Positions 4,023 to 45,627 of a stretch of DNA of 64,000 nt are shown piece after piece. Numbering within the stretch: the stretch's first letter is position 1; every line of letters starts with the position of its first letter. The notes beneath the pieces are model-generated. The model saw only the letters and a program-made list of their open reading frames with translations. It ran no database searches and was not told where the DNA came from. The translations under genes were made by a program, and so were the position numbers. This DNA comes from an uncultured Thermoleophilia bacterium (GTDB lineage: Bacteria > Actinomycetota > Thermoleophilia > UBA2241): positions 1,043,379 through 1,107,378 of the forward strand of contig CAVPIV010000004.1 of NCBI GenBank assembly GCA_963705085.1, written 5' to 3'.

Positions 4023-5555
4023 TCACATCCGGTTGACGGTGCCCTCCCACGTGCCGACCTTCGTCGCCTGCCGGTCCTCGGGCGTGAACCAGCGCGACGT
4101 CACGCACTTGGTCTCGGTGTAGAAGCGCACGCCGTCGGTGCCCAGCACGTGCGCGTCGCCGAAGAACGACTGCTTGTGCCCGGAGAACGGGAAGAAGGAC
4201 ACGGGCACCGGGATGCCCACGTTGATGCCGACCATGCCGGCGTCCGAACGCCGGGCGAATTCGCGCGCGTGGTAGCCGCTCTCCGTGAAGATGCACGAGC
4301 CGTTGGCGAAGCGGCTGCCGTTCATGATCGCCATACCTTCCTCGAAGTCCGCGACGCGCTTGACGAAGAGGACCGGGCCGAACACCTCGTCGCGGCCGCA
4401 GACCATCTCCTCGGTGACCCGGTCGAAGACCGTGGGGCCGACGAAGAAGCCGTTCTCGTAGCCGGGCACGACGACGTTGCGGCCGTCGAGGACGAGCTCC
4501 GCTCCCTCATCGACGGCCTTGTCGATCCAGCCGGTGACGAAGCGTTTGTGCTGGGCCGTGACCAGCGGGCCGAGCTCCGTTCTGGGGTCGTAGGCGCAGC
4601 CGACGACGCGTTCGCGGGCGAAGCGGACGATGTGCCCCAGGAACTCGTCGGCGACAGCCTCCTCGACGACGCAGACCGGCAAGGCCATGCAGCGCATGCC
4701 GGCGCACCCGAAGGTGGAGTTGATGATGCCGGCGGCCGCCCGCTCGAGCGCGGCGTCGCGCAGCACCAGGCCATGGTTCTTGGCCTCGGTCTGCGCCTGC
4801 ACGCGCTTGCCGTGAGCGGCCGCAACGGAGTAGACGTGCAGCCCCGTCTTCGTCGAGCCGACGAAGCTCACTCCCCGGACGGCAGGATGCGTGACGAGGA
4901 CCTCCGCCTCGGCCGGCTTGCAGGTCACGAGGTTGACGACCCCCTTGGGCAGGCCGGCCTCGATGAGCAGCTCGAGCAGCCGCATGCCGGTTGTCGGGAC
5001 CATGCTGCGCAGCTTGAGCACCAGTGTGTTGCCGGTGGCGACACAGAGCGGCAGCATCCAGCCGAACGGGATCATCGCCGGGAAGTTGAAGGGCGCGATC
5101 CCGACGAAGACGCCGAGCGGCTCGCGGTAGCTGACCGTGTCGTGCCCCGCCGACACGTTCATGAGCGACTCGCCCTTCATGAGCATCGGCGCCCCGACGG
5201 CGAGCTCGCAGGCCTCGATGATCTTGACGACCTCGCCGCGCGCCTCCTCGAGGTTCTTGCCGAGCTCGCGGCTCGTCAGATGGGCGATCTCCTCGACGTG
5301 CTCCTCGAGCAGCGCCTTCCAGCGGAAGAGCACCTGGGTGCGGACCGCCACCGGCTTGGCCGCCCAGGCGTCGAACGCCCTGTGGGCGGCCTCGATCGCG
5401 GCGGCCACCTCCTCAGCGGTGCACGCCGGGGTCTCGGCGAACACCTCGCCGGTGCTCGAGTCGCTCACCGGCAGGTACGTCTCGGTCGCCGACTCCCGCC
5501 ACTCGCCGTCCACGCAGTACTTGAGCCTCTTTACCTGGGACGTGTGGTCTGCCAT
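4023..5555 (-). CDS. mmsA: CoA-acylating (methyl)malonate-semialdehyde dehydrogenase
   Basis: PFNFPAMIP, SFVGST, GKRVQAQTEAKNH, FGCAGMRCMAL, GINVGIPVP, FSGHKQSFFGD are MmsA/IolA signatures. Confidence 0.9.
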   Translation of the reverse strand: MADHTSQVKRLKYCVDGEWRESATETYLPVSDSSTGEVFAETPACTAEEVAAAIEAAHRAFDAWAAKPVAVRTQVLFRWKALLEEHVEEIAHLTSRELGKNLEEARGEVVKIIEACELAVGAPMLMKGESLMNVSAGHDTVSYREPLGVFVGIAPFNFPAMIPFGWMLPLCVATGNTLVLKLRSMVPTTGMRLLELLIEAGLPKGVVNLVTCKPAEAEVLVTHPAVRGVSFVGSTKTGLHVYSVAAAHGKRVQAQTEAKNHGLVLRDAALERAAAGIINSTFGCAGMRCMALPVCVVEEAVADEFLGHIVRFARERVVGCAYDPRTELGPLVTAQHKRFVTGWIDKAVDEGAELVLDGRNVVVPGYENGFFVGPTVFDRVTEEMVCGRDEVFGPVLFVKRVADFEEGMAIMNGSRFANGSCIFTESGYHAREFARRSDAGMVGINVGIPVPVSFFPFSGHKQSFFGDAHVLGTDGVRFYTETKCVTSRWFTPEDRQATKVGTWEGTVNRM

Positions 5556-5570
5556 CTCGCGTCCTTCCTC

Positions 5571-6959
5571 CTAGAGCGAAGCCCGCTCCCTGAACCGGTC
5601 GACGCAGTTGATCGGGACGTCGAGCACCCGCGCGATATTGAACTTCGCCTCGATGAAGTTGGCCTGGGCGGGCTGACTGATCGCGTACGAGTGAATGCGG
5701 CCAAAGCCGTGCTCGTTGCGCACGTCCGTCATCACGGCCGGGTCGGAGAGGTCGAACGGCGACACGCCCAGCTTGCCGGCCACGTACTCCTTGGCCTCCT
5801 TGAGACGCATACCCCGGGTCATCTGCATCCGTGCCACCAGATCTCCGGCAGCACGCATACCGCCCATGCCCGCGGCCTGCGTGTGGGTGCCCTGCATGCC
5901 GAGAGGGTCACCCGACCCCACCTACAACCCGTCGATCTTGAGGATGTCGACGAAGGCCTTGGCGGCCCGGCACGCCGCATCGACGACCGGGTGCACGAAC
6001 ATCGGCACGCCGCCGACGCCCATGCCCACGTTGGGGTGGATCGGGATCGTCGCGTCGGCCATGCAGGGTTTGATCAAGGTCAGCGCCCTGGCCATGTTCC
6101 AGGCGCAGCTCTTGCCGGTGTTGATGTTGACAACCGGCCCGAACATGGTGGCCCCCGCCTTCTGGGCGAGGAGCATCTGCTGGTGCGGCCACTGCCCGGC
6201 CAGCCGCACCCCGTCGTACTCGAGCCGCCCGTGCATGCCGAGCACGAACTCGCCGGCCATGCCCAGCTCGACGCCCATCGTCGGGTACTTCTTGCGCACG
6301 ATCTCGGTCGCCCGCAGGGCGGCGAGGAACTCGGGATCGCCCGAGGCCCCGGTTGTGTCCCAGTCGAGGCCGTCGGCGCCCGCCTCCCACATCGCGTCGG
6401 CGAGCTTCACCATGTCGTCGACAGCCATGTCGACGGCCTCCTCCTCGGCCTCCCGGGCCTCCGGGATCTGCCCCGCCGGCAGCAGCTCGTTCCAGTTCGG
6501 GAACGGGCCGTCGGGCTTGGAGTACAGGCCCAGGTTGACCATGACGCCGTACTGCATGGGGACGACCATCTGCAGCTGGGCGTCGTGCAGGCACTGGGCC
6601 TCGTACGGCAGGATCGTGCGGACGACCTTGAGCGAGTAGTCGCCGACGCAGAGCTCCACCAGGTCGGCGCCCATCCACTGCTCGAACGACTGCATGTCCT
6701 GCTGGCGCGTCGCGTGGGTCTTCATGCCTGTGCCGTCGCAGCTCAGCACGACCTCGTCGCCCAGGTCGACGCTGGTGAAGCGCGCGGGCGAGGCGTAGAT
6801 GTCGAGGACGTGCTCCATCTCGTCGGCGTCGAGCGGCGGCACCTTGGCGCGGGCGGCCGCCGCCTCGACGCCTGCTTCGATGTCCGCCTGCAGCTCGCCG
6901 CGCGTCAGGCGCGCGATCGTGCCGTCGCCCATGCGCGTTGGTATCCGGTTCTCGTTCAC
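5571..6959 (-). CDS. mtbB: Dimethylamine:corrinoid methyltransferase, pyrrolysine-containing (in-frame TAG at 5924-5922)
   Basis: ORFs 5922..6959 and 5571..5921 share a frame and are separated by one TAG: ...ILKIDGL-TAG-VGSGDPLGM...MRAAGDLVARMQ...EAKEYVA. This matches the MtbB Pyl context (DGI-O-IGVGDPLGM). N-terminal TRMGDG; IPIHPNVGMGVGGVPM. Confidence 0.93.
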
Positions 6960-7191: not shown

Positions 7192-8642
7192 ATGAGAGCG
7201 ACGACGACCTGGCTGAGCGACGCCGAGAAGCGGAGCATCGTCGACGGCGCCCTCGACCTCCTCGCCAACGTCGGCATGCGCTTCGCCGGCTCTCGCACGC
7301 TGCCGCTGCTGGCGGAGCGGGGGGCGCGCATCGACGAGGCGACCGGCATCGTGCGCCTGCCGCGCGACCTCGTCGCCTGGGCCGTCGAGCGCTGCCCGCG
7401 CTCGTTCCTCATGGCCGGCGCCTCGCCGGCGGACGATGTCATGCTCGGCGAGGGGCGGCCGTTCCACTTCCGCCCAGCGGCTGTGTCGCCAAGACCCTCG
7501 ACTACCGCACGGGCACCCGAAGGCCCAGCACGCTGGCCGACGTGCGCGAGGGCACGGCGGTCATGGACGCGCTGCCGCAGCTCGACCTCATGTGGACGCA
7601 GGTGAGCGCAACCGACGTGCCCCTGGAGCGGCGCGAGCTGCTCGAGTACTTCACCGTGCTCACCGAGACGTCGCGGCACGTCACCTTCGTCGACTGCCCG
7701 CAGGAGGTCGACGCCGTCCTGCGCCTCTGCGAGGTCCTGGAGGGCGACCTCGACCGCTTCCGCGAACGGCCGCGCATCTCCACGGTCGTCACGGCGGCGT
7801 CGCCGCTCCAGGTCGACGGGCCCGTCCTCGACACGCACGTCGCCCTCGCGGCACACGGCGTGCCGATCGAGGTCTACTCGATGACGATCGCCGGCGCGAC
7901 GTCGCCGGTGACGCTCGCCGGCACCGTCGCCCAGGGTCTGGCGGAGTTCCTCGGCGTCGCCACCGCGCTCCAGGTCGCGGCGCCCGGCGCGAGGGTGGTC
8001 TTCTGCTTCGGCTCCGGCGTCCTCGACATGCTGCGCACGACCTTCTCGCTCGGCTGCGTGGAGAGCGCCCTCATGGCCGTCATGGCCACCGAGGTCGGCC
8101 ACCACGTGGGCGTGCCGACGCTCAACCCCGGGCTGTCCACCGACGCCAAGCACGCCGGCCTGCAGACCGGCTACGAGAAGGCCCTCAAGGCGGCGACGGT
8201 GTGCGCCGCCAGCCCCGACATCGTGTCCGGCTGGGGTCTCATCGACTCGCACAACACGATGTACCTGCCGCAGTCGGTGGTCGACAACGAGATCGCCGCC
8301 ATGGTGCGCCGCCTCACCTCCGCCGTCGAGGTGTCGCCCGAGACGCTGGCCGCCGACTCAGTCGCCCGTGTCGGGCCGGGCGGCAGCTTTCTCGGCGAGA
8401 AGGCGACGGCGCGCCGCATCCGCGCCGGCGAGCACTACCTGCCGACGGTCTCGACCAGGCTCTCCTACGAGAAGTGGATCGAGGACGGCCAGACCGAGAT
8501 CGACGCGGCGACGGCCACGGTGGAGCGCATCCTCGCGGCCCGCCCCTCCCGGCAACCCCATCTCCGCGACGAGCAGATCGACGAACTGGCCGCGATCTGC
8601 CGCGCCGGCCCCGAGAGCGTGCGCCAGGCGAAGGGAACGTGA
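7192..8642 (+). CDS. Non-pyrrolysine MttB-superfamily methyltransferase, with a 1-nt deletion frameshift near 7470
   Basis: N-terminal half MRATTTWLS...GRPFHF joins PSGCVAKTLDY...SPLQVD...AGATSPVTLAG...GLSTDAKHAGLQTGYEK...VGPGGSFLG after one missing base (ttccgccc). Confidence 0.85.
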
Positions 8643-8643
8643 C

Positions 8644-9558
8644 ATGAGAATCGGCTACATCGGTCTCGGCTGCCTCGGCCGCCCCCTGGCCCACAGCCTG
8701 CTCGAGGCGGGCTTCCCGCTCACCGTCTACGATGTCGACCGGACCTGCGCCACCGATCTGGTGGCGGCCGGCGCCGTCTGCGCCGACTCGGCCGCCGAGA
8801 CGGCCCGGCTGTCGGACACCGTCATCACCTGCCTCCCCTCCCCCGAGATCGTCGCCGAGGCGGTGGCCGGCGAGGACGGCATCCTCGCCGGCCTGGCGCC
8901 CGGAGGGACGTGGATCGACATGAGCACCAACGACCTACACGAGCTGCGGCGGCTCGCCGCGGCGGCGGCGGAGCAAGGCGTCGCGACGCTCGAGGCGCCG
9001 GTCACCGGCGGCGTTCACCGCGCCGCCGCCGGCATGATCACCGTCCTCGTCGGCGGCGACGAAGAGGTCTTCCGGGCGCACCTCCCCGCCTTCGAAGCGA
9101 TGGGCGGCCGCGTCTTCTACATCGGCGAGCTGGGCCAGGCCTCGGTGATCAAGGTGATCACCAACATGCTGGCCTTCATCCACCTCGTCGCCGACGGCGA
9201 GGCGCTGATGCTGGCCAAGCGCGGCGGCGTCGACCTCAAGCTCGCCTGGGACGTGATCAAGGCCAGCTCGGGCAACAGCTTCGTCCACGAGACCGAGGGC
9301 CAGCTCGTCCTCAACGGCAGCTACAACATCAACTTCACGATGGATCTGGCCCGCAAGGATCTCCATTTCGCCCACCAGCTCGGCCGCGAGTTCGGCGTGC
9401 CGCTGGAGCTCGGCGGGCTCACCGAGCAGATCTTCGCCCGAGCCCGGGCGATGTACGGCGGCGGCGCCCAGTCGCCGATGGTCGTCAAGATGCTCGAGGA
9501 CTGCTGCGGCACCGACCTGCGGGCCCCCGGCTTCCCTGCCGAGCTGGCGCCCGAGTGA
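8644..9558 (+). CDS. NAD(P)-dependent beta-hydroxyacid dehydrogenase family oxidoreductase
   Basis: IGYIGLGCLG Rossmann motif, IDMSTN, EAPVTGG, K-VITN catalytic lysine, FTMDLARKDL. Confidence 0.9.
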   Translation: MRIGYIGLGCLGRPLAHSLLEAGFPLTVYDVDRTCATDLVAAGAVCADSAAETARLSDTVITCLPSPEIVAEAVAGEDGILAGLAPGGTWIDMSTNDLHELRRLAAAAAEQGVATLEAPVTGGVHRAAAGMITVLVGGDEEVFRAHLPAFEAMGGRVFYIGELGQASVIKVITNMLAFIHLVADGEALMLAKRGGVDLKLAWDVIKASSGNSFVHETEGQLVLNGSYNINFTMDLARKDLHFAHQLGREFGVPLELGGLTEQIFARARAMYGGGAQSPMVVKMLEDCCGTDLRAPGFPAELAPE

Positions 9559-10344: not shown

Positions 10345-12123
10345 ATGGACTTCTACACCGGACGCGTGCTGCGGCTCGACCTCACGGCCGGCACGGCCAC
10401 GGTCGAGCCGCTCAACGAGGAGTGGGCCCGCCTCTACATCGGCGGCAAGGGCCTGCTCCTGCGCTACCTCTTCGCGGAGCTGCCGGCCGGCACGAAGGCG
10501 CTGGCCCCCGAGAACCCGCTCATTCTGGCGACCGGGCCGTTCGCCGGCACGGCTGCCCCCACCTGCTCACGCCTGGCGGTCGGCTGCAAGAGCCCGGCCA
10601 CCGGGACCTTGCTCGACTCGTACGTCGGCGGCTCTTTCGCCACCGAGCTCAAGTTCGCAGGGTACGACCTGGTGCTGATCACCGGCCGGGCGCCCGCGCC
10701 GGTCCTCGTCCTCGTCGAGGACGAGCGGGTCGAGCTCCTCCCGGCCGCAGGCCGGTTCTGGGGTCTCGAGACGGCCGCCCTCGAGGAGGTCGTGCGGCGC
10801 GAGATGGGGCCCCACCACAAGGTGCTCTCGACCGGCCCGGCAGGCGAACGCGAAGTGCCCTTCGCCTGCCTCTCGACCGACCACTACCACAAGGCCGGCC
10901 GCGGCGGCGCCGGCGCCGTGATGGGCAGCAAGAACCTCAAGGCGGTCGTGGTGCGCGGCACCGGCGCCGTGAGCGTCGGCGACACGGCCGCCTTCACCGC
11001 CGACGTGCTCCGCCTGCAGCGCGAGCGCGTGCTGACCGCCGACAACGCCTGGGCCTACGAGGAGGGCACGCCCTTTCTCGTCGAGGCCGTCAACGACGCC
11101 GGCGCCCTGCCTACCCGCAACTTCCGCAGCGGCACCTTCGCCGGCGTGCCGGCGATCGGCTCTGCCGCCCTGCTCGCCGTACGCACCAAGGTGCGGGCCT
11201 GCACGCAGTGTCCACTGGCCTGCCGCCAGGTCCACGCCTTCGCCGACCACGTCTGTGAAGGCCCGGAGTTCGAGACCCTCGGGCTCTGTGGCGCCAACTG
11301 CGGCATCGCCGATCTCGCCGCCGTCGCCGCCTTCACCCGCGACTGCGACGAGCTCGGCCTCGACACGATGTCCGCCGGCGTCATTGTCGGCCTGGCCATG
11401 GAGTTGTGCGAACACGGCGCCGCCGACTACGGCCTCGCCTTCGGCGACGTGGACGCCTACCTGGCGGCGCCCCGCCTCATCGCCGCCCGCGAAGGCTACG
11501 GCGCCGAGCTCGCCCTCGGCGCCCGGGCTTTGGCCGCCCTCAAGGGGCGGCCGGACCTGGCGACCGAGGTCAAGGGCCTCGAGATGCCGGCCTACGATCC
11601 GCGGGGCACGTTCGGCATGGGCCTCGGCTACGCCACCTCCGACCGCGGCGCCTGCCACATGCGCGCCTTCACCGCCTACGACGACATCCTCGGCGGCAGC
11701 GCGCCGCCCGACTCCCTCGAAGGCAAGGCGCAGCTCGTCGTCGACCTACAGGACTTCAGCGCCGTGGCCTGGACCGGCGTGTGGTGCTCCAACATGGCCC
11801 TGGACACCGACTTCCTCGGCGCCTATCTCAGGCACGTCTGGAAGCGGGAAACGTCTCATGAGGAGCTGATGACCGTCGGCGCCCGCATCTGGAACCTCGG
11901 CCGCCTCCTCAACCTGCGCGAGGGCATACGCCGCGAGGACGACCGGCTGCCGGAGCGCATCCTGCGCACTCCTCACCCGGACGGGGTCGCCGCCGGCAAG
12001 GTATTGACCGCCGAGGAGCTGCGGGCGGCGATCGACGAGTACTACCGCCTGCGCGGCTGGACGCCGGAGGGCGTGCCGGAGGAGACAACCCTTCAGCGCC
12101 TGGCGGTCGACGTCCGGGTCTGA
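10345..12123 (+). CDS. aor: Aldehyde:ferredoxin oxidoreductase (tungsten/molybdenum pterin)
   Basis: KSPATG, AGRGGAGAVMGSKNLKAV, CTQCPLAC, GPEFET, CDELGLDTMS, DPRG, DRGACH, YYRLRGW. Confidence 0.93.
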   Translation: MDFYTGRVLRLDLTAGTATVEPLNEEWARLYIGGKGLLLRYLFAELPAGTKALAPENPLILATGPFAGTAAPTCSRLAVGCKSPATGTLLDSYVGGSFATELKFAGYDLVLITGRAPAPVLVLVEDERVELLPAAGRFWGLETAALEEVVRREMGPHHKVLSTGPAGEREVPFACLSTDHYHKAGRGGAGAVMGSKNLKAVVVRGTGAVSVGDTAAFTADVLRLQRERVLTADNAWAYEEGTPFLVEAVNDAGALPTRNFRSGTFAGVPAIGSAALLAVRTKVRACTQCPLACRQVHAFADHVCEGPEFETLGLCGANCGIADLAAVAAFTRDCDELGLDTMSAGVIVGLAMELCEHGAADYGLAFGDVDAYLAAPRLIAAREGYGAELALGARALAALKGRPDLATEVKGLEMPAYDPRGTFGMGLGYATSDRGACHMRAFTAYDDILGGSAPPDSLEGKAQLVVDLQDFSAVAWTGVWCSNMALDTDFLGAYLRHVWKRETSHEELMTVGARIWNLGRLLNLREGIRREDDRLPERILRTPHPDGVAAGKVLTAEELRAAIDEYYRLRGWTPEGVPEETTLQRLAVDVRV

Positions 12124-12132
12124 GCCGCCGGG

Positions 12133-14337
12133 CTAGGCGTCGGCGCCGGAGTCTGCCTCGCCCAGCGCCTGGGCAGCGACTGCCGCCGCAGGCTTCCCGG
12201 ACGTCTGCGCCGCCAGCAGCTCATCCGGCGGGATGTGACAGTTGTACGTGTGCCCAGGCGCGGCTTCCTGCACCGGTGGCTCCTGCGTCTCGCAGATCTT
12301 CCCGAGGAAGCGGTGGCAGCGCGTGTGGAACCGGCAGCCCGAGGGCGGATCGCTGAGGCTCGGCATGCTGCCGCGCAGCGGGATCCGCTGGTGGGGGTCG
12401 TCGAAATCGAGTGTGGGGATCGACGACAGCAGAGCCTCCGTGTAGGGATGGTGCGGTGGGTTGAAGACCTGTTCGGCCGAGCCGACCTCGATGAGCTCCG
12501 CGAGGTACATCACCCCGATGCGGTCGGAGATGTAGCGAACCACGGCGAGGTCGTGGGAAATGAAGACGTACGACACCTGCTTGGTGGTCTGCAGCTCGAC
12601 GAGCAGGTTGAGGATGCTGGCCTGCACCGACACGTCGAGGGCCGAGGCGGGCTCGTCGCAGACGACCAGCGTCGTGGGGTTGCCGGCGAAGGCGCGGGCG
12701 ATGGCGATGCGCTGCTTTTGGCCACCCGAGAGATCCATCGGCTTCTGCAGGAGGAAGCGCGGCTCGACGCGCACGTCGGCCGACAGCTTGTCGACCATGG
12801 CGCGCACCGAACCTTCCCCGGCGCCGCCGAGCTTGCGCACGGAGCGGGTGAGGATGGCACGCGTGCTCCACGACGGGTTGAGTGTGGAGTCGGGGTTCTG
12901 GAAGACCATTTGGATGGCGCGCAGCGCGTTCTGTGAGCGGCGCCCGGCGGTGGAGGGCAGCTTCTTGCCCTCGAACTCCATCGTGCCGGAATCGGCGGCG
13001 ATGAGGCCGGTGACGCACTTGGCCAGGGTAGTTTTGCCGCTGCCCGACTCGCCCACGAGACCGAAGGTCTCGCCGCGCTTGAGCCGGAGCGACACGTCGT
13101 GCACAGCGGTGAGCCTCTTGCGCCCGTCCTTGAACGTGCGATTCACGTCGCCGATGAGGAGCACGTCGCCCTCGCTCGCGCCCCTGGCCTCCAGGCTGGT
13201 GGCGAGGACCGGGGTCCGGCGCGGCATCTCGGGCACGTCCCCAGAGAAGTAGCAGCGCGCGTGGCGCGCTGCCTCCCCGACCGGGTTGGCGTGGTGCGGC
13301 GAGTAGGCTGCCGGGTCCGGCGGCATGGCCTCAGCCTCCGCCGCCCCCTTGGCTCCGCCGTCGCCTGGCCAAGCGTAGAGGTCGGGCTCGCGGCGCGCAC
13401 AGACCGGCTGCGCCATCGGACAGCGCGCCGAGTAGACACAGCCCTTCAGCGGCTCGCCGAGGGCCGGCAGCGTGCCGGGGATGGTCTCCAGCGCCGCGTC
13501 GGTCTTGTTCATGCCGAAGCGCGGCACGCAGCGCAGCAGGCCCATCGTGTACGGGTGCCGCGGGTCGGTGAAGATCTCGCGGGCAGGACCTTCTTCGACC
13601 AGGCGCCCCGCGTAGAGCACGCCGACGCGCTCGCAGAGGCGCGCCACCAGGCCGAGATTGTGCGTGATCAGCAGGATGGCCGCGTTGATGCGCCCGCGCA
13701 GCTCCTCGATAAGGTCGAGGATCTCGGCCTCCACGGTGGCGTCGAGGCCGGTCGTGGGCTCGTCGAGGACCAGCAGGTGCGGGTTGACGGCCAGCGCCAT
13801 GGCGATGACCACGCGCTGCTGCTGCCCGCCGGAGAGCTCGAAGGGGTAGCGGCGCAGGGTCGAGTCAGGGTCGGGGAGCGCAACGCGGCGTAGGCTCTCG
13901 CGAGCGCGCTCGAGCGCCTCGGCCTTGCCGAGACCCTCGTGGTAGCGAAAGACCTCGGCGACCTGGTCGCCGATGCGCATCGCCGGGCTAAGGGCCGTGG
14001 CGGGGTCCTGGTAGACCATGGCGATCTGCTCGCCGCGCCACTTGCGCACCGCCTCTTCGCTCAGCTTGCTGACGTCCTGCCCATCGACCAGCACCCGGCC
14101 GGCGTCGATCGTGCCGTTGGCGGCCAGGTAGCGGAGCGCGGCCATGGCCAGCGTGGTCTTGCCGCAGCCCGACTCGCCGACAAGGCCGTAGGCTTCGCCG
14201 CGCTCGATGCGCAGGGTCACGCCCTTCAGCACCGGCAGGTCGCGGCCGCGACGATGGAACGTGACCTCAAGGTCGCGGACGTCGAGCGCGGCCGGCGCGG
14301 CGTCCGGGGCGTTGGCTGGTTGTTCCACGGTGCTCAT
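12133..14337 (-). CDS. Dipeptide/oligopeptide-type ABC transporter, fused double ATP-binding subunit
   Basis: Two Walker A motifs (GESGCGKT, GESGSGKT), two LSGGQ signatures, HPYT and C-terminal GC-F-RC motifs. ATGA overlap with the upstream permease. Confidence 0.93.
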   Translation of the reverse strand: MSTVEQPANAPDAAPAALDVRDLEVTFHRRGRDLPVLKGVTLRIERGEAYGLVGESGCGKTTLAMAALRYLAANGTIDAGRVLVDGQDVSKLSEEAVRKWRGEQIAMVYQDPATALSPAMRIGDQVAEVFRYHEGLGKAEALERARESLRRVALPDPDSTLRRYPFELSGGQQQRVVIAMALAVNPHLLVLDEPTTGLDATVEAEILDLIEELRGRINAAILLITHNLGLVARLCERVGVLYAGRLVEEGPAREIFTDPRHPYTMGLLRCVPRFGMNKTDAALETIPGTLPALGEPLKGCVYSARCPMAQPVCARREPDLYAWPGDGGAKGAAEAEAMPPDPAAYSPHHANPVGEAARHARCYFSGDVPEMPRRTPVLATSLEARGASEGDVLLIGDVNRTFKDGRKRLTAVHDVSLRLKRGETFGLVGESGSGKTTLAKCVTGLIAADSGTMEFEGKKLPSTAGRRSQNALRAIQMVFQNPDSTLNPSWSTRAILTRSVRKLGGAGEGSVRAMVDKLSADVRVEPRFLLQKPMDLSGGQKQRIAIARAFAGNPTTLVVCDEPASALDVSVQASILNLLVELQTTKQVSYVFISHDLAVVRYISDRIGVMYLAELIEVGSAEQVFNPPHHPYTEALLSSIPTLDFDDPHQRIPLRGSMPSLSDPPSGCRFHTRCHRFLGKICETQEPPVQEAAPGHTYNCHIPPDELLAAQTSGKPAAAVAAQALGEADSGADA

Positions 14338-15317
14338 CTCGAGAAGACCCGTGAGAGTCCGTCGGTGATGAGATTGACGCCCACCACAAGAGAGGCGAGG
14401 GCGGCGGCGGGGATCAGCACCGTCCACGGGGCGATCTGCAGGAAGATCCTCTCCGTGGCGATCGTGAGGCCCCAGTCGGGCGACGGCGGCACCAGGCCGA
14501 AGCCGAGAAACGACAGCGTGGCCGCCGTGAACACGGCGTAACCCAGACGGATCGTACCCTCGACGATGATCGGCTGCGTGATGTTGGGCAGGATCTCGCG
14601 CGCCATGACGAACGCCGAGCGTTCGCCCCGCAGGCGCGCCGCCATGACGTACTCGCGCTCGCGCTCGCCGATGACCGCCGCACGAATGGTGCGGCTGACC
14701 ACCGGTGTGAACAGCGCCCCGATGACGACGATGACGATGGCCAGCGACTTGCCGAGCAGCGACAGGATGAGGATGGAGGTGATGATGACCGGCAGGGCCA
14801 GCAGCACGTCCACCAGCCGCATGATGATCTCGTCGGTCATGCCGCGGTAGAAGCCGGAGACGAGGCCGATGATGCCGCCCCAGAGCAAGGCGAGGAGAGT
14901 CGCCAGGGGCGCGATGATGAGCACGGTGCGGGCACCGGCCATGGTGCGGGCGAGCACGTCGCGGCCGAGGTCGTCGGTGCCGAACCAGTGCGCTGCGCTG
15001 GGCGCCTGGAGACTGGCCGCCGCATCGACATCGAAGGGGCTCTGCGTGATGAACGTCGAGAAGATGGCCATGAAGAGCCAGAAGAGGACGATGAGCAGGC
15101 CGGTCATGAAGGTCGGGCTGCGCAGCAGCGCCTTCGCCAGATAGCGTCGCTGCCGCCGCTGTTCCAGCAGAGAGGCGGCGTCGGCCTGGGCCGTCTGTGC
15201 CTGCCGGTCGGCGGCGGCTTCGGCCTGGAACTCCAGCATCTCGGGATCCGCGTCCACCCAGCTTGCTTCTTCCGCCAGATCGGGGTCCGCCCCGAAGGGG
15301 CCACGCTCTTCGTCCAT
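14334..15317 (-). CDS. ABC transporter permease (DppC/OppC-like)
   Basis: HWFGTDDLGRD, EYVMAAR, LSFLGFG, PDWG. Confidence 0.93.
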   Translation of the reverse strand: MDEERGPFGADPDLAEEASWVDADPEMLEFQAEAAADRQAQTAQADAASLLEQRRQRRYLAKALLRSPTFMTGLLIVLFWLFMAIFSTFITQSPFDVDAAASLQAPSAAHWFGTDDLGRDVLARTMAGARTVLIIAPLATLLALLWGGIIGLVSGFYRGMTDEIIMRLVDVLLALPVIITSILILSLLGKSLAIVIVVIGALFTPVVSRTIRAAVIGEREREYVMAARLRGERSAFVMAREILPNITQPIIVEGTIRLGYAVFTAATLSFLGFGLVPPSPDWGLTIATERIFLQIAPWTVLIPAAALASLVVGVNLITDGLSRVFSR

Positions 15318-15318
15318 G

Positions 15319-16266
15319 TCAGCCGCCCATCCGGATGCGCGGGTTGAGCAGTGCCACCACGATGTCGGCCATCAGGTTGGCGACCATGTAGATCACGGCC
15401 ACGACGAGCACGGCGGCCTCGAGCATCACCACATCGTGCGTCTGCGCGGCGTCGACCATGACCTTGCCGATGCCCGGGTAGACGAACAGGGTCTCGATGA
15501 CCACCAGGCCGCCGATGAGCCAGCCCACCTGGCTGCCGATCACGGTGACGGTCGGCACCATAGCGTTGCGCAGCACGTGGCCGAAGATGACCCGGCGGCG
15601 CGGCAGGCCCTTGAGCACGGCGGTGCGGATGTACGGCGTGGCCAGCACCTGCACGGTGCCGACGCGTGCCATGCGCGCGATGTAGCCCAGCTCGAGGAAC
15701 ATCAGCGGGATGGCGGGGAGGATGAGGTAGTAGAAGCGGTCCACGAAAGGAGAGCCGTCGGGCGGCATGGCGGTCACCGGGAGCCATTTGAGCGACACCG
15801 CGAAGATGTACAGCAGGATGACGCCGCTCACGAACTCGGGGATGACGGTCATCGACAGTGAGGAGACCGTGATCCCCCGATCGAGAAAGCTGTCCTTGCG
15901 CAGCCCCGCGAAGACGCCCACCAGGATGGACACGGGCACGATGATCACCAGCGCGAAGCCGGCGAGCAGCAGCGAGTTGCCGAGCGCCGTCATGACCGTC
16001 GGCCGCACCGGGATGTTGAGGAGAGGCGATTCTCCCCAATCACCGGTGACGAAGCCGGCGGCCCAGCTCGCGTAGCGCTCGTAGATCGGCTTGTCGGCGC
16101 CCAGCTTCTGGTTGAGGATATCGACCTGTTCCTGCGTGGCGTAGGCCCCCAGGATGGAGCGCCCCACGTCGCCGGGCAGCACCTCGGCGAGCGCGAACAC
16201 GAGTATCGACACCAGGATCAGTGTCGGTATCATGAGGAGCAGCCGCCGTCCGATGAGGCGCAGCAT
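15319..16266 (-). CDS. ABC transporter permease (DppB/OppB-like)
   Basis: LPGDV, GDWGES, YIRTAVLKGL, HVLRNA, IETLFVYPGIG. Confidence 0.93.
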   Translation of the reverse strand: MLRLIGRRLLLMIPTLILVSILVFALAEVLPGDVGRSILGAYATQEQVDILNQKLGADKPIYERYASWAAGFVTGDWGESPLLNIPVRPTVMTALGNSLLLAGFALVIIVPVSILVGVFAGLRKDSFLDRGITVSSLSMTVIPEFVSGVILLYIFAVSLKWLPVTAMPPDGSPFVDRFYYLILPAIPLMFLELGYIARMARVGTVQVLATPYIRTAVLKGLPRRRVIFGHVLRNAMVPTVTVIGSQVGWLIGGLVVIETLFVYPGIGKVMVDAAQTHDVVMLEAAVLVVAVIYMVANLMADIVVALLNPRIRMGG

Positions 16267-16311
16267 CCCGGGGACCCTACGTCAGCCGATGTCAGTAGCC
16301 GGTCGTCAGCC

Positions 16312-17997
16312 TCAGGCGGTCTTGAACGCTTCCTTCATGAGGCAGTAGAAGTTGCCGGGGCCCTGGATGCCGTACACGGTCTTCTTCTGTGTGCGCAGCG
16401 CGCTGATGTAGTAGGCCACGAGGATGGGCGTGTCGTCCTGCTGGATCTGCGACAGCTTTGTGGCGAGCGTCGTGCGCGACGCCTCGTCCGCAGTCGACAT
16501 GTACTCGTCGAAGGTGGCGGCGAAGTCCTTGTTGTCCCATTTCGACGAGCTCCACGGTGCGCCGGGCATGAGCATGGCCTGGGCGTACACGCCCGGCGTC
16601 GGCCGGCTGCCCCACTCGACGATGGGCATCGCTGCGTTGAGCCACGGCGTGGAGGTCTCGGTGCCCGCGTAGTAATCTTCGTAGGGGACGAAGTCGAGCG
16701 TCACGTTGATGCCGGCCGGCTTGCACTGCGCCTGGATGAGCTGCGCGTACTGCGGGTTCTCCAGGTACTTGGAGTAGGTCAGCACGATGTCGAGACCGCC
16801 GGCGTGGCCGGCGTCGGCGAGCAGCTGCTTCGCCTTGTCGTAGTCCTGGGCACGCGGCGTGGAAGCCGGGCTGGCCGGGAAGACCGCGGGCTCCCAGAAG
16901 GTGTCATAGCCCAGGCTGCTGCGGCCGTCGAACAACGCCTTGTTGATGGCCTCCCGGTCGAGACAGTAGGCGACCGCCTGGCGAAGGGCGGAGCCGCCGC
17001 TCTTCCACGGCTCCTTTGTGACGTTGAACGCGACCTCGCGGATGCCGGTGCCAGGGTAGACGTCCACCCTGAGGTTGGGATCGCTGAAGAGCGCCTGCGA
17101 GCCCTGGAAGACCGTCTGCGGCTGGAAGTCGATGGTGCCGGACTGCAGCTGCAGGTTGGCGGCCGACTCGTCCAGCACAAAGGCCCAGTTGACCCCGTCC
17201 AGGTACGGGAGCTGGTTGCCCGCGGCGTCTTTGCCCCAGTAGGTGGGGTTCTTGACCATGGTGCACTTCTGCTTGGCGACGTACTCCTTGAGAATGAAGG
17301 GACCAGTGCCTACAGGGTTATTGACGAAGTTGCCGTCGTAGTTGCGCGGCAGCATGACGGCGTTGTAGTTCGACATGCAGACCATGTACGGGAAATCGGC
17401 GAACGGCTTGTCGAGGGTGAACTCGACGGTGTAGGTGTCGACTGCCTTGGTGCCGCCCGGGGAGAGGATGCCCCCGAGGACGGACAGAGCCGAGGAACCG
17501 GTCTTGGGATCGATGAGGCGCTCGAAGGTGGCCACCACGTCCGCCGCCTCGAAGGGGCTTCCGTCGTTGAACTTGACGCCCTGTTGCAGCTTGAAGGTCC
17601 AGACCGAGGCGTCTGCATTCCCCGACCAGCTCTCCGCGAGCCTGGGCACCAGGGCGTTCTGGTTATCCAGATCGATGAGGTACTCACAGAGGTTCATGAT
17701 GAGGACGATGCCGCCCTGGTCCTTGATCGTCGCCGGGTCAATGTCGGTGAGCGACGGCGGGATGACGCCTGTGAGCGTGCCGCCCATGACCGGCGCCGGC
17801 ATGCCGCTGGCGCTCGCCGACGGGGTCGTCGAGGTGCTGCTGCTGCCCCCGCAGGCGGCCAGCAGCGAGCCGGCTGCCGTGAGGGAGAAGCCGAAGACGG
17901 AGGCGCGCACCAAGAGCTGGCGGCGCGTCATCCGCCCGTTCTGCACTTGTTCGATGAGATGGTGGGCGTACTCCCTGCGGAACTGATCGTCGGTCAT
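16312..17997 (-). CDS. ABC transporter family 5 substrate-binding lipoprotein (Tat-type signal)
   Basis: RBS AGGGGGAG before ATG 17997; TRRQLL twin-arginine motif and LAAC lipobox; LAESW, FKLQQGVKFNDG, PVGTGPF. Confidence 0.92.
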   Translation of the reverse strand: MTDDQFRREYAHHLIEQVQNGRMTRRQLLVRASVFGFSLTAAGSLLAACGGSSSTSTTPSASASGMPAPVMGGTLTGVIPPSLTDIDPATIKDQGGIVLIMNLCEYLIDLDNQNALVPRLAESWSGNADASVWTFKLQQGVKFNDGSPFEAADVVATFERLIDPKTGSSALSVLGGILSPGGTKAVDTYTVEFTLDKPFADFPYMVCMSNYNAVMLPRNYDGNFVNNPVGTGPFILKEYVAKQKCTMVKNPTYWGKDAAGNQLPYLDGVNWAFVLDESAANLQLQSGTIDFQPQTVFQGSQALFSDPNLRVDVYPGTGIREVAFNVTKEPWKSGGSALRQAVAYCLDREAINKALFDGRSSLGYDTFWEPAVFPASPASTPRAQDYDKAKQLLADAGHAGGLDIVLTYSKYLENPQYAQLIQAQCKPAGINVTLDFVPYEDYYAGTETSTPWLNAAMPIVEWGSRPTPGVYAQAMLMPGAPWSSSKWDNKDFAATFDEYMSTADEASRTTLATKLSQIQQDDTPILVAYYISALRTQKKTVYGIQGPGNFYCLMKEAFKTA

Positions 17998-18118
17998 CGC
18001 TGCTCCCCCTAGCCTTAGGCCTGCGAAACGACGTGGGCGGGACGCGGCGCGCCGCATGGTCAAAGTCCGCCCCTTGGATAGTTGGATTGCACGATACAGG
18101 CTCGCGGCTCGGAAGACA

Positions 18119-18138
18119 ATGACCAACCGGCCAGTTAG
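18119..18138. promoter_or_regulatory. Putative operator upstream of the ABC importer
   Basis: ATGACCAACCGGCCAGTTAG, similar to the palindrome at 23997. Confidence 0.55.
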
Positions 18139-20823: not shown

Positions 20824-21474
20824 TCAGCCCACCCCGAGGATGGTCTTGGCGGTGGCCACCGCCTCGATCGCGTCCTCGGCGTAGCCGTCGGCGCCGATCT
20901 CCTCGGCCCAGGCGCGGGTCGTCGGGGCGCCGCCGATCATGACCTTGACGGACTCGCGCAGGCCGGCGGCCTTCAAGGCCTCGATCGTCCGGGCCTGGTT
21001 GGGCATCGTCGTGGTCAGCAGGGCGGAGAGCAGCAGCAGATCGGCGCCGGTGTCGCGCACCGTCGCGACGAAGGTCTCGACGGGCACGTCGCAGCCGACG
21101 TCGGTGACCGTGAAGCCGGCGGCGCTGAGCATGCTGCAGACGATCGTCTTGCCGATCTCGTGGATGTCGCCGGCCACCGTGCCGGCCACGGCCACGCCCA
21201 GGGTGCGGCGGCCCTCGCTGGTCTTGTCGAGCTCGGGCTGCAGGACGGCCACGGCGGCCTTCATGGCCTCGGCCCCCTGGACCAGCTCGGGGAGGAAGAA
21301 CTCGCCGCGGCCGAAGAGGTCGCCGACCTCCTCGATGCCCTTGACGAAGCCGTTGTCGAGGATGTCGGCGGGGGCCAGGCCGGCGGCCAGGCCCTGGGCG
21401 GCCAGGGCGGCGGCCTCCTCCGGCTCGCCGTCGAGGATCGTCTGCTTCATCTGCTCGTACAGGTCTGCTGACAT
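20824..21474 (-). CDS. Methyltransferase corrinoid (B12-binding) protein, MttC/MtbC-like
   Basis: GDIHEIGK (DxHxxG), LSALLTTT, MIGGAP, IGADGYAEDA, N-terminal cap FFLPEL. Confidence 0.95.
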   Translation of the reverse strand: MSADLYEQMKQTILDGEPEEAAALAAQGLAAGLAPADILDNGFVKGIEEVGDLFGRGEFFLPELVQGAEAMKAAVAVLQPELDKTSEGRRTLGVAVAGTVAGDIHEIGKTIVCSMLSAAGFTVTDVGCDVPVETFVATVRDTGADLLLLSALLTTTMPNQARTIEALKAAGLRESVKVMIGGAPTTRAWAEEIGADGYAEDAIEAVATAKTILGVG

Positions 21475-21485
21475 GTGATCCTCCG

Positions 21486-22937: not shown

Positions 22938-23165
22938 CGTCTCTTCTCTCCTCTGCAGTCCCGTGGAGGCCTATGGGCACGGCCGACGTCGAGCCCAGTG
23001 CAGGATGACATGCGGGTACCGTCACGACAACCGGCCGGCGGCGACATCTGGTAGCATCCCGGCCTGAGGTATCCGCTCGGTTAAGCGTCGACCGCGCCGC
23101 GCCATGGGCCCGGGACCAGGCGCCGGGTGGACGGTGGTGGGCCGCGCCAGGGGGAGGTCGCAAGC

Positions 23166-24071: not shown

Positions 24072-25541
24072 ATGAGACGCAATCCTCGCGCCGGAGCGCG
24101 CCAGAGCGGCGGCCTGAGACTCGAGGTGTTCACCGAAGACGAGCTGCGCGAGATCCACCTCGCCACGCTCGAGGTGCTGTCGCGTACCGGCGTCTTCGTC
24201 GAGGACGACGAGGCACTCGCCATCTTCGCCGGCGGCGGCGCCGACATCGACACCGACCGCCGGGTCGTCAGGCTCCCCGCCCACGTCGTCGAAGAGGCCC
24301 TGCGCACGGCGCCGCCCAAGGTCGTCCTCTGCGGCCGCACGCCCGAACGCGATGTCGTCCTCGAGGACGGCCGCGTCGGGTTCACGAACTTCGGCGAGGG
24401 CATCCAGGTCGTCGACCCCTACACCGGGGAGTTGCACGAGTCGCTCAAGCAGGATGTCGCCGACTGTGCCCGCCTCATCGACGCCCTCCCCGAGATCGAC
24501 GTCCTCGAGCGCCCTCTCGGCGCCCACGACGTCCCGCCCGACACCGCGGCCCTGCACAATGCCGAGGCCATCTTCTCGAACACGACGAAGCACGCCACCA
24601 TCGGTCCGCTCACCGGGTTCTGCGCCCGCAAGATGATCGACATGGCGGCGGCGATCGCCGGCGGCCGCGATCAGCTCCGCCGGCGGCCGCTCCTCTCGTT
24701 CCTCACCTGCCCGGTGAGCCCTCTCAAGCTGGTGGCCGACTGCTGCCGGATCATCATCGAGGGCGTGCGCGCCGGCGTGCCGGTCAACGTGCTGTCCATG
24801 GCGATGGCCGGCGGCTCCGCGCCCGTCAACCTCGCCGGCGCGCTGGTCGAGCACAACGCCGAGGTGCTGGCCGGGATCACGCTGGCCCAGCTCACGGCGC
24901 CCGGTGCCCCGGTCATCTACGGCTCCTCGACGACCGCCATGGACCTGCGTTTCGCCAGCGCCTCGGTGGGCAGCCCTGAGTGCGGGCTGATCGGCGCCGG
25001 CGTCGCCTGCCTCGCCCGCTTCTACCTGCTGCCGAGCTGGGTGGCCGGTGCGTAGGGGGACGCCAAAGTGGCGGACGCCCAATCCGGCCACGAGAAGACG
25101 ATCACCAGCCTGCTGCCGGCGTTGGCAGGGGCCAACCTGATCTACGGGCTGGGGATGCTGGAGTCGGGCGTCACCATCGATTACGGGCAGCTCGTCATGG
25201 ATGCCGAGTTCGCGCGCATGGTCAAGTTCTGCGTCCCGGGCATCCCCGTCAACGACGAGACCCTGGCCGTCGACGTGATCGCGGAGGTCGGACCCTTTGG
25301 CGACTTCCTCTCGCACGACGACACGTACCGGGGCATGCGCAGCCAGTCGCAGTCACGGCTCATCGACCGGAGGGTCCGGGAGGACTGGACCGCCTCCGGC
25401 TCGACGAGCATCTACGACCGCGCCCTGGCCGAGGCGCGACGTCTGCTCGAGACGTATCAGCCGGAGCCTCTTCCCGACGACGTGGTCCGGCGCCTGCGAG
25501 AGATCGTCGCCGCCGCGGAGCGCGAGCTCGGGGTCGGCTGA
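24072..25541 (+). CDS. mttB: Trimethylamine:corrinoid methyltransferase, pyrrolysine-containing (in-frame TAG at 25053-25055)
   Basis: LPSWVAGA-TAG-GDAKVADAQSGHEKT matches the MttB Pyl context (PSFVAGT-O-SDAK..DQAGHEKT). FTNFGEG, CPVSPL, MAMAGGSAPV, YGSSTT, GANLIYGLGMLE. RBS CAGGAGG. Confidence 0.95.
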
Positions 25542-45491: not shown

Positions 45492-45627
45492 AGGCACTCC
45501 GGTTCGCTCATGAGGGCGGGCGGCCGAGCCAGCGACCGCAGCCCTAGACCTCGTTCTGAATAGCGGCCCGACTACCCACCTGCCTCCAGGGCGCACGCCC
45601 CGGACCCATGCATCGCTGCTGTGCACG

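Follow-up and report, generated by a model that had tools for sequence, protein, structure and literature searches.

A predicted pyrrolysine codon and a covarying downstream mRNA hairpin in mtbB of an uncultured Thermoleophilia bacterium

Introduction

Bacteria known to decode pyrrolysine (Pyl) include Firmicutes such as Desulfitobacterium and Acetohalobium as well as Deltaproteobacteria, and PylRS has been reported in two Actinobacteria. In the archaeal MtbB of Methanosarcina, the Pyl residue is number 356. The bacterial PylRS enzymes covered by two reports are all described as split into PylSn and PylSc (PMC9630628, PMC11764691). In Actinobacteriota MAGs from a thawing-permafrost mire, Pyl-encoding mttB and mtbB genes are reportedly expressed and were recognised by their truncation at the amber codon (PMC10805028), and the PYLIS_2 structure of mtbB is given as a prediction of Have et al. 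2013 (PMC3639795). Pyl in Actinobacteria, expressed Pyl-containing mtbB and mttB genes in that group, and Pyl-encoding bacterial mtbB are already published.

Here, an mtbB gene was analyzed in a 64,000-nucleotide stretch of DNA (the window) from an uncultured Thermoleophilia bacterium. It is an ordinary case of an already known type of recoding, and the understanding of how pyrrolysine works is unchanged by it. The encoded protein resembles Methanosarcina MtbB in its family (TIGR02368/PF09505, above the equivalog cut-off), its length, its single UAG at the same profile position and an RNA element of the same Rfam family past that UAG. In contrast to the archaeal system, it occurs in a bacterial host with a synthetase split into PylSn and PylSc; this copy belongs to a diverged subclade, and tetrahydrofolate presumably takes the place of coenzyme M as the downstream methyl acceptor. 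The known Pyl-decoding bacteria share with this genome the split synthetase, the use of UAG as an ordinary stop elsewhere and the confinement of Pyl to methylamine methyltransferases, whereas here a whole Thermoleophilia family has Pyl, MtbB is expanded and pylSc is convergent to pylSn. The mire MAGs match in phylum and in both gene families; what is documented in the part of that report dealing with these genes is their expression, rather than pyl genes, an RNA element or taxonomic spread. The newest point of the present analysis is covariation at synonymous sites, in support of an mRNA hairpin under selection 69-94 nt past the UAG.

Table 1. Coordinates of features at the mtbB locus and of the pyl genes on contig C7 of the same genome.
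Feature	Location	Strand	Basis or remarks
mtbB, [dimethylamine--corrinoid protein] Co-methyltransferase	5571..6959	-	462 codons including one in-frame TAG; ORFs, translation, PF09505, TIGR02368
UAG, codon 346, predicted to be read as pyrrolysine	5922..5924	-	only unmatched profile position; conserved TAG; bridged by contigs of other runs
mtbB terminator TAG	5571..5573	-	translation, sequence
Rfam RF02509 PYLIS_2 (pyrrolysine insertion sequence mtbB) match	5825..5924	-	model 1-100; 74 bits, E 5e-16
Inner hairpin of PYLIS_2 element	5830..5855	-	9 pairs and 4-nt loop; covariation
CoA-acylating methylmalonate-semialdehyde dehydrogenase family, downstream gene	4023..5555	-	TIGR01722, 541.6 bits (cut-off 448.5)
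MttB-family gene without Pyl codon, divergent to mtbB	7210..8597	+	two pieces, profile 5-87 and 92-464
3-hydroxyisobutyrate-dehydrogenase-like NAD-binding dehydrogenase	8644..9558, start approximate	+	PF03446, PF14833
Nearest corrinoid protein (B12-binding_2 and B12-binding)	20824..21480	-	TIGR02370, 221.4 bits (cut-off 215.3); Pfam
mttB, second Pyl gene of the window	24072..25541, start approximate	+	in-frame TAG 25053-25055
tRNA-Pyl(cta), pylT	C7:12163-12235		cloverleaf, 5-nt D loop
PylSn	C7:13282-13542	+	116.7 bits
PylSc	C7:13628-14350	-	307.5 bits

A single mtbB gene with an in-frame amber codon

The mtbB region (Table 1) was listed as two abutting minus-strand ORFs in the same frame, one of 345 aa that ends in TAG (5922-6959) and one of 116 aa (5571-5921). 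The start codon is GTG, with the Shine-Dalgarno-like run GGGGGAGGGA ahead of it. The sequence around the internal stop codon reads ...ATC GAC GGG TTG TAG GTG GGG TCG GGT GAC..., and read-through of the TAG gives a 462-residue protein with ...KIDGL-O-VGSGDPLG...; the predicted Pyl-spanning peptide is ...ILKIDGL-Pyl-VGSGDPLGMQGTHTQAAGMGGMR.

A preliminary description, made from the letters of the window, had proposed one 462-aa MtbB whose two parts are linked by a TAG at the Pyl site, with MtbB similarity on both sides, and the profile coordinates agree with this. The first ORF covers positions 4-353 of PF09505 and 7-355 of TIGR02368, and the second covers 355-462 and 357-464, respectively; in each profile the position under the TAG (354 and 356, respectively) is the sole one skipped. 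The joined protein scores 559.6 bits against PF09505 (profile 4-462 of 463) and 435.8 bits against TIGR02368 (NCBIfam), above the equivalog cut-off of 369.1 bits, while the single halves score 309.9 and 105.2 bits, both below it. Together with an RNA element that starts at the UAG and complete conservation of the TAG (see below), these coordinates indicate that 5571-6959 is a single genuine bacterial mtbB whose in-frame TAG is predicted to encode pyrrolysine. The expectation that standard annotation would split such a gene also holds, since nearly all of the database relatives (best 120 listed) are fragments of about 345 aa that stop at the TAG.

Conservation of UAG 346 and translation past it

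The same codon is TAG in all 79 related loci from other genomes and in 118/118 mtbB copies across all related loci examined. An alignment of 27 sequences shows the motif DG-[LMY]-O-[VA]-G-x-GD without variation. MtbB matches were found in 24/24 genomes of the same genus and, among the matches listed, essentially all have exactly one internal TAG. The preliminary description had named reads with a sense codon at this site as a refuting result. Other single-base problems are present in the assembly, which would be in keeping with an ordinary sense codon that appears as TAG through a sequencing or assembly error or has become TAG by a private nonsense mutation. However, the homologous copies that carry the TAG come from many independent assemblies, and contigs of runs from two other metagenomes bridge the codon unchanged (X2, 5766-5958, 0 differences; X4, 5860-6017, 1 difference, at 5979). 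An error or private mutation is refuted by these data, and its remaining probability is negligible.

The codon directly after the TAG is a GTG, from which the 116-aa ORF was called. This could suggest that two polypeptides are made without pyrrolysine, a 345-aa part that stops at the UAG and a 116-aa part for which translation restarts at the GTG, and that the two assemble together. Such an arrangement is highly improbable. The codon corresponds to Val/Ala347 of the conserved O-[VA]-G and is GCN, which is unable to start translation, in the relatives L076 and L086; moreover, no ribosome-binding site precedes the GTG. A split gene would not require TAG, yet TAG and no other stop is found in every copy, and the genome holds a complete set of pyl gene families.

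Substitution rates were compared on the two sides of the UAG. Against the closest orthologue, L028, dN/dS is 0.019/0.53 (~0.04) after the TAG and 0.041/0.54 before it, and seven more orthologue pairs gave similar values. This indicates that the part of mtbB past the TAG is under purifying selection and hence that it is translated.

About 27% of the genes in the genome end in TAG. UAG is therefore not reassigned genome-wide, and read-through at codon 346 would compete with termination. The terminator of mtbB is itself TAG, so efficient suppression would extend MtbB into the next gene, whose ATG lies 5 codons past the terminator in the mtbB frame. A conserved read-through fusion of mtbB with this aldehyde dehydrogenase gene was considered and rejected: the two genes are out of frame in L028, and mtbB ends in TAG at only 9 of the 79 related loci (TGA or TAA at 69, lost at a contig end at 1).

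Pyrrolysine machinery in the genome

The preliminary description took the amber codon to imply a working pyl system elsewhere in the genome, and pylT, pylSn, pylSc, pylB, pylC and pylD were all found when the genome was searched for them. PylSn and PylSc are encoded by separate genes beside pylT, which specifies tRNA-Pyl(CUA), and the convergent layout of pylSc and pylSn is shared by two relatives. PylB (414.8 bits) and PylD (216.6 bits) are both full length, PylC scores 262.2 bits summed, and all five proteins are above their own cut-offs. Six other genes of the genome are Pyl genes, two more mtbB and four mttB, with one TAG apiece. The word 'working' stands on less firm ground than the gene inventory; because pylC is cut about 30 codons in, a functional system is something that we infer.

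In the case of pylC, the match begins only at profile position 21 and about 30 N-terminal residues are absent compared with relatives, where the match begins at position 2-4 in 40 of the 41 that have one. The frame runs into DNA of 30% GC at an abrupt composition break (C7, ~10,850). The missing 5' end was sought elsewhere in the genome with the sequence of a relative as blastn and tblastn query, and only pylB homology on C4 and chance matches were returned. The order of the genes is also unusual. pylB and pylD are on C4, and the truncated pylC lies on C7 with pylT, pylSn and pylSc, whereas pylB-pylC-pylD are contiguous in 29/30 relatives' loci; no alignment in the 49 relatives with a match spans a direct pylB-pylD junction. 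Among 54 genomes of the genus, this rearrangement is present in the window genome only. In addition, frameshifts split the MttB-like neighbour of mtbB, the third mtbB copy (in two pieces) and a corrinoid gene, so that some decay or assembly error must be present.

These features could be taken to mean that the Pyl system of this genome is broken, that UAG terminates, and that mtbB and the other Pyl genes are recently inactivated relics. We consider this quite unlikely. At the junction, which lies at the extreme start of a contig, pylC and a reverse-transcriptase gene are both truncated and face each other head to head, and similar low-GC blocks occur at the start of C5 and inside C8; this fits a chimeric assembly join better than an insertion, and the break in pylC is probably such a join. 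The seven TAG-containing methyltransferase genes are otherwise open. Furthermore, the dN/dS value past the TAG was obtained against an orthologue that has diverged by 6% in protein, so any loss of Pyl would have to be very recent.

Taken on the genomic evidence, it is very likely that a full-length MtbB is made, with UAG 346 decoded as pyrrolysine by machinery encoded elsewhere in the genome. In the proposed scheme, PylB, PylC and PylD would make pyrrolysine from lysine, the split PylSn and PylSc would charge tRNA-Pyl(CUA) with it, and the charged tRNA would decode the UAG.

A hairpin downstream of the UAG

The PYLIS_2 match lies well above the gathering score of the family (36 bits), extends over the full-length model and has as its model position 1 the U of the mtbB UAG. 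Of the two hairpins in the model, the second is the one that covaries here, so that its base pairs are supported. The first hairpin, in contrast, pairs poorly in the window sequence and is weakly supported in the alignment (pair 15-37 is paired in 75.7% of sequences vs 58.3% expected).

In the alignment, the inner hairpin occupies columns 70-95, which correspond to +69 to +94 when counted from the U of the UAG. Three of its pairs link synonymous third positions (R369/A376, A370/V375 and A371/L374), and the fold z-score is -3.2. Over the alignment on which the structure was both derived and tested, 94.6% of cells are paired and covariation is 0.184 vs 0.095 in shuffles, with 0/500 shuffles reaching the observed value. 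Across 107 sequences, pair 72-93 forms in 87.9% vs 45.5% expected, and it shows at least 8 independent compensated changes in 53 sister pairs, whereas none of 738 control column pairs reached 5. Among the four closest orthologues, all four Watson-Crick combinations are present at this pair. For the constant pairs, the pairing is in large part dictated by the conserved peptide R-A-A-G-D-L-V-A-R. From these patterns, an mRNA hairpin 69-94 nt past the UAG appears to be kept by selection on synonymous sites, and this synonymous-site compensatory support is new relative to the published PYLIS_2 prediction.

The PYLIS_2 structure may favor read-through. That the hairpin is a functional cis-element which biases the ribosome toward Pyl insertion over termination in bacteria is a tentative suggestion, and one that we regard as possible but rather doubtful. 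If true, the long-standing question whether a PYLIS element matters would be answered in the case of mtbB. The lineage provides well over 100 natural mtbB sequences. Their covariation evidence for an RNA structure past the UAG is unusually clean, and with it the disputed role of PYLIS becomes testable. A match to PYLIS_3 was also found, in the window mttB (25053-25152).

Substrate and neighboring genes

Passing the TIGR02368 equivalog cut-off suggests that the window MtbB uses dimethylamine. Identity between its subclade and the clade with the highest TIGR02368 scores is about 50%, and the subclade differs by an 11-residue deletion and a 4-residue insertion (27-sequence alignment); because of this divergence, including the lack of the 11 residues, dimethylamine as the substrate is an assumption. 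The enzyme could instead be a Pyl-dependent member of the family that acts on another methylated amine. Genomes of the genus hold up to 17 MtbB matches, more than one substrate seems to need, and the neighbors of mtbB include dehydrogenases. The non-Pyl MttB-family gene and the 3-hydroxyisobutyrate-dehydrogenase-like gene form a divergent pair conserved in about 30 related loci, and the methylmalonate-semialdehyde dehydrogenase gene lies downstream. This last gene, however, adjoins mtbB at only three loci (the window, L028 and L072). In relatives, the mtbB orthologue is followed directly by the orthologue of the window's Pyl mttB, in the row Lrp/AsnC - mtbB(Pyl) - mttB(Pyl), which is the expected partnership for conversion of trimethylamine to dimethylamine to monomethylamine. 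The new substrate suggested by the dehydrogenase neighbors is weakened by this arrangement, and an amine other than dimethylamine is unlikely.

The ribosome-binding site of the downstream dehydrogenase gene, GGAGGAAGG, overlaps the mtbB stop codon. In the divergent MttB-family gene, one base is lacking near 7470 (a 1-base gap vs L028, L072 and L045), which divides the coding sequence between two frames. A contig from an RNA library (X19) spans 5671-5922 of the window; it is short and is no proof of transcription.

No corrinoid protein gene adjoins mtbB. The nearest one, 14 kb off and located between two non-Pyl MttB-family genes, encodes a candidate methyl acceptor and partner of MtbB. The genome contains about 10 corrinoid proteins and two RamA-like proteins as candidate partners, and a URO-D/MtaA-like gene found in a genome search with PF01208 adjoins a corrinoid protein gene. 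With dimethylamine as the presumed substrate, MtbB would take a methyl group from this amine and pass it to Co(I) in a corrinoid protein. The methyl group would presumably pass from there to tetrahydrofolate via an MtaA/MtqA-like enzyme, with a RamA-like protein presumably reactivating the corrinoid.

Predicted fold of MtbB

An AF2 model of MtbB (pLDDT 86.9, pTM 0.90) places residue 346 in strand 344-347. In VIA-align comparisons, the best matches are corrinoid and methyl-transfer TIM barrels at Z 16-18, including the MetH Hcy domain (Z 17.9) and a Methanosarcina mazei methyltransferase (4ay7, Z 17.5), and unrelated TIM barrels score little below these at Z 14-15. Foldseek against the PDB returned generic TIM barrels only (TM ~0.3). 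A sequence search for a solved MtbB structure yielded only chance matches to chlorophyll-binding proteins (E >= 0.009). The modeled fold can be called a TIM barrel and nothing more specific.

Host lineage and distribution

The relatives of the window mtbB are Thermoleophilia MAGs. Among the genomes sampled, PylSc was found in 51/55 from the host family, 9/55 from a second family and 0/190 from the other families. The host is an anaerobic member of the Thermoleophilia (Actinomycetota) rich in genes of the MttB, MtbB and MtmB families. This places a full set for Pyl-dependent demethylation of tri- and dimethylamine in a high-GC actinobacterial family, and such bacteria would be competitors of methylotrophic methanogens for methylamines. 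Because annotation systematically cuts the window mtbB and its database relatives short at the Pyl codon, methylamine use by these Actinomycetota of wetlands, freshwater and sediment is under-called. One of the related loci, L076, belongs to a 'palsa' Actinomycetota MAG.

An mtbB gene probably read across an in-frame UAG

The preliminary description had joined two ORFs into one 462-aa MtbB across a TAG, with MtbB similarity on both sides, and the ORFs, their translation and the sequence agree with it exactly. Translation of the frame across the TAG gives 462 residues, including ...KIDGL-O-VGSGDPLG... (O, pyrrolysine). The first ORF matches positions 4-353 of the Pfam PF09505 profile and 7-355 of TIGR02368, and the second matches 355-462 and 357-464, respectively. 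The joined protein scores 435.8 bits compared to the TIGR02368 equivalog cut-off of 369.1, and each half alone falls below that cut-off. The start codon is a GTG at 6959 with a GGGGGAGGGA run just 5' of it. The gene's own terminator (5573-5571) is likewise TAG, a point absent from the preliminary description.

Coordinates of features in the window and elsewhere in the genome (unprefixed, window positions; C, contigs of this genome; L003, a genomic locus; Pyl, pyrrolysine)
Feature	Position	Strand	Remarks
mtbB 5' ORF	5922-6959	-	345 aa, TAG-terminated, same frame as 3' ORF
mtbB 3' ORF	5571-5921	-	116 aa, same frame as 5' ORF
In-frame TAG of mtbB	5924-5922	-	...GAC GGG TTG TAG GTG GGG TCG...
CoA-acylating methylmalonate-semialdehyde dehydrogenase gene	4023-5555		3' of mtbB, same frame, starts 5 codons past terminal TAG
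MttB-family gene without Pyl codon	7210-8597	+	5' of mtbB, divergent
Corrinoid protein nearest to mtbB	20824-21480
Pyl mttB, orthologue of relatives' mtbB-adjacent mttB	~24072-25541	+	TIGR02369, 729 bits; 17 kb from mtbB
In-frame TAG of Pyl mttB	25053-25055	+	Single
PYLIS_3 (Rfam) match in mttB	25053-25152		71.5 bits, begins at TAG
tRNA-Pyl(cta)	C7:12163-12235		ARAGORN
PylSn	C7:13282-13542	+	116.7 bits, above curated cut-off
PylSc	C7:13628-14350	-	307.5 bits, above curated cut-off
PylC	C7:10824-11948	+	262.2 bits summed, above curated cut-off
PylB	C4:842169-843179		414.8 bits, above curated cut-off
PylD	C4:843360-844148		216.6 bits, above curated cut-off
MtmB-family (PF05369) genes	C8:600510-601859; C4:408581-409927	+	Whole profile matched, each directly 3' of a corrinoid-protein gene
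~30% GC block in 69% GC genome	C7:1-10850 (= L003:1-6850)		First 10.8 kb of contig
Further low-GC blocks	C5:1-3000; several in C8:10000-87000

The UAG is a coding position

The homologous codon is TAG in all 79 related loci of a scan with one genome per species, and in 118 of 118 mtbB copies across all loci compared, which carry 107 distinct downstream sequences. The surrounding motif D-G-[LMY]-O-[VA]-G-x-G-D is invariant in an alignment of 27 sequences with 47-94% identity. In the comparison with the closest orthologue (locus L028, 94% identical), the part upstream of the TAG has a dN/dS of 0.041/0.54 and the part downstream 0.019/0.53, and seven further sequence pairs behave similarly. This pattern after the TAG indicates that the 116 codons beyond it are translated in the mtbB frame.

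A sense codon at this position, which would have spoken against the preliminary description, was sought in contigs from other metagenomes, and the difference rows, all but 19 weaker ones, hold none at 5922-5924. Two public contigs bridge the TAG unchanged, one in run X2 (record 13, 5766-5958, 0 differences) and one in run X4 (record 21, 5860-6017, 1 difference, at 5979). The Rfam family PYLIS_2 ('pyrrolysine insertion sequence mtbB') matches 5924-5825 with 74 bits (gathering score, 36), and its model position 1 falls on the U of the TAG. The mtbB TAG is a coding position and not a lesion.

Pyrrolysine machinery

A working set of pyl genes elsewhere in the genome had been implied, and tRNA-Pyl, PylSn, PylSc, PylB, PylC and PylD were all found, with the 5' end of pylC missing. 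The genome comprises 2.89 Mb at 69% GC in 8 contigs, is rated 97.7% complete, and has the window on contig C4. The tRNA-Pyl folds as a cloverleaf with a D loop of 5 nt and an atypical T loop. These observations bear out the reading that this actinobacterium decodes Pyl and that its mtbB encodes it, and mtbB is very probably translated through its UAG as pyrrolysine. TAG terminates 387 of 1445 ORFs (27%, by a GC3-based ORF heuristic), and UAG is thus used without genome-wide reassignment. A tRNA-Sec(tca) is present at C3:195896-195993 (minus strand), so the organism probably decodes selenocysteine as well as pyrrolysine. ARAGORN also called one tRNA whose anticodon loop has four bases (cgtg; C5:80529-80612), and two over-long tRNAs, tRNA-Asp (C3:16323-16415) and tRNA-Ala (C4:1308310-1308405); these are possibly false calls or intron-bearing genes.

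The pylC match begins only at position 21 of the profile. The PylC of a relative extends ~30 residues further at the N terminus, a glycine-rich start among them, and the missing start was not found elsewhere in this genome. Exactly at the pylC break, at about C7:10,847, GC content jumps from 30% to 72%, and on the low-GC side lies a reverse-transcriptase gene (RVT_1), also 5'-cut and head to head with pylC. A DUF4268 gene lies in the same block, as does a weak match to ResIII. Relatives carry pylB-pylC-pylD-pylT followed by pylSn convergent with pylSc (29 of the 30 loci whose flanks were long enough, and two longer regions). Here the order is pylB-pylD and then tRNA-Ser (C4:842070-844172), with truncated pylC-pylT-pylSn and convergent pylSc on C7 (10818-14442); pylB-pylD contiguity is found only in this genome among 54 of the genus. 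The pattern at the C7 break suggests a chimeric join to DNA that comes either from another organism or from a mobile element.

A conserved hairpin downstream of the UAG

The 120 nt from the mtbB UAG fold with -64.3 kcal/mol (z-score -3.2). RNAalifold predicted 28 pairs from 26 mtbB orthologues, with 94.6% of cells paired and a covariation score of 0.184, compared to 0.095 in shuffles (reached by 0 of 500) and at most 0.046 with partners slid. The inner hairpin (alignment columns 70-95, window 5855-5830) corresponds to hairpin 2 of PYLIS_2. For the most part, the conserved peptide R-A-A-G-D-L-V-A-R fixes those of its pairs that do not vary, but three pairs connect third positions that are synonymous. 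Across the 107 distinct sequences, pair 72-93 (Arg369 CGN with Ala376 GCN) forms in 87.9%, where column frequencies predict 45.5%, pair 75-90 in 86% (57% predicted) and pair 78-87 in 99% (82% predicted). These percentages are inflated, since part of the data tested had also served to derive the structure. Pair 72-93 occurred as GC (51), CG (21), AT (14) and TA (6). The sister-pair test is unaffected by this inflation: among 53 non-overlapping nearest-neighbour sequence pairs, both sides of 72-93 changed 11 times and 8 were still paired, compared to a maximum of 4 among control third-position pairs (0 of 738 reaching 5). From this comparative evidence we conclude that the predicted mtbB hairpin exists and is under selection. 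For mtbB, the prediction of a canonical structure has already been published (PMC3639795) and is included in Rfam.

Sequence search gave no solved MtbB structure. An AlphaFold2 model (27-sequence alignment; pLDDT 86.9, pTM 0.90) places residue 346 within strand 344-347. Its top structural neighbours are methyl-transfer TIM barrels (MetH homocysteine domain, Z 17.9; M. mazei methyltransferase 4ay7, Z 17.5), with Z scores just slightly above those of unrelated TIM barrels.

Distribution and methyltransferase set

The related loci are mostly from Thermoleophilia MAGs, some labelled Actinomycetota or Actinomycetes. MtbB with one internal TAG occurs in all 24 sampled genomes of the genus and in 1 of 16 genomes from six other families of the class. 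The 24 genomes hold up to 17 MtbB profile matches each, nearly all with exactly one TAG, in at least two clades that are about 50% identical and set apart by an 11-residue insertion in the alignment. PylSc was detected in 61 of 301 sampled genomes of the class (51/55 in this family, 9/55 in a second family, 0/190 in the rest), and PylC in 41 of 45 other genomes of the genus.

This genome has mtbB at three loci, each with a single TAG (one of these loci is in two pieces), four mttB genes with one TAG, about twenty MttB-family genes without TAG, about ten corrinoid proteins, two RamA-like activators and a URO-D/MtaA-like gene adjoining a corrinoid protein. Its two MtmB-family genes, homologues of monomethylamine methyltransferase, have no internal stop and do without pyrrolysine.

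Bacterial PylRS is described as invariably split into PylSn and PylSc (PMC9630628, PMC11764691), and a 2023 permafrost mire study reports expression of Pyl-encoding mttB and mtbB by some Actinobacteriota MAGs (PMC10805028). The Pyl-encoding mtbB system is therefore of a fully known kind. No description of the pyl genes of this lineage was found in the partial texts available on pyrrolysine in Thermoleophilia or Actinomycetota. Within the reach of these searches, no earlier description was found of the spread through this Thermoleophilia family, the expansion of paralogues or the hairpin covariation; wider significance would follow only if the hairpin turned out to influence how the UAG is decoded.

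Gene neighbourhood of mtbB

Relatives share the gene row Lrp/AsnC regulator-mtbB(Pyl)-mttB(Pyl)-non-Pyl MttB. Together with the Pyl mttB and the nearest corrinoid gene of the window, this row fits the usual trimethylamine/dimethylamine pathway. A TetR-family gene (23127-23933) lies 5' of the Pyl mttB. Divergent from mtbB, on its 5' side, a 3-hydroxyisobutyrate-dehydrogenase-like gene is paired with the non-Pyl MttB-family gene, an arrangement kept in about 30 related loci. The latter gene lies in two frames, with one base missing near 7470 compared to three orthologues, and is either a pseudogene or an assembly error. Other split methyltransferase or corrinoid genes are at C4:778932-780283, C4:413383-414758, C4:1192946-1194333, C4:1214206-1215589 and C4:1230597-1231185.

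The aldehyde dehydrogenase gene adjoins mtbB only in the window, L028 and one other locus (L072); in the window, the mtbB stop lies partly within the ribosome-binding site of this gene. Because its ATG is in frame downstream of the terminal TAG (5556-5573, minus strand), UAG suppression there would fuse the two genes into a product of ~978 residues. A conserved fusion frame was rejected: in L028 the two reading frames do not match, and a terminal TAG on mtbB is seen in just 9 of the 79 loci.

Close to the methyltransferase genes are an aldehyde:ferredoxin oxidoreductase gene (10345-12123, plus strand) and an oligopeptide-type ABC transporter operon (12133-18126, minus strand) with a fused double ATPase, two permeases and a family-5 binding protein. 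An Rfam nhaA-I riboswitch-like motif lies at 45558-45607 (minus strand; 40.1 bits against a gathering score of 37).
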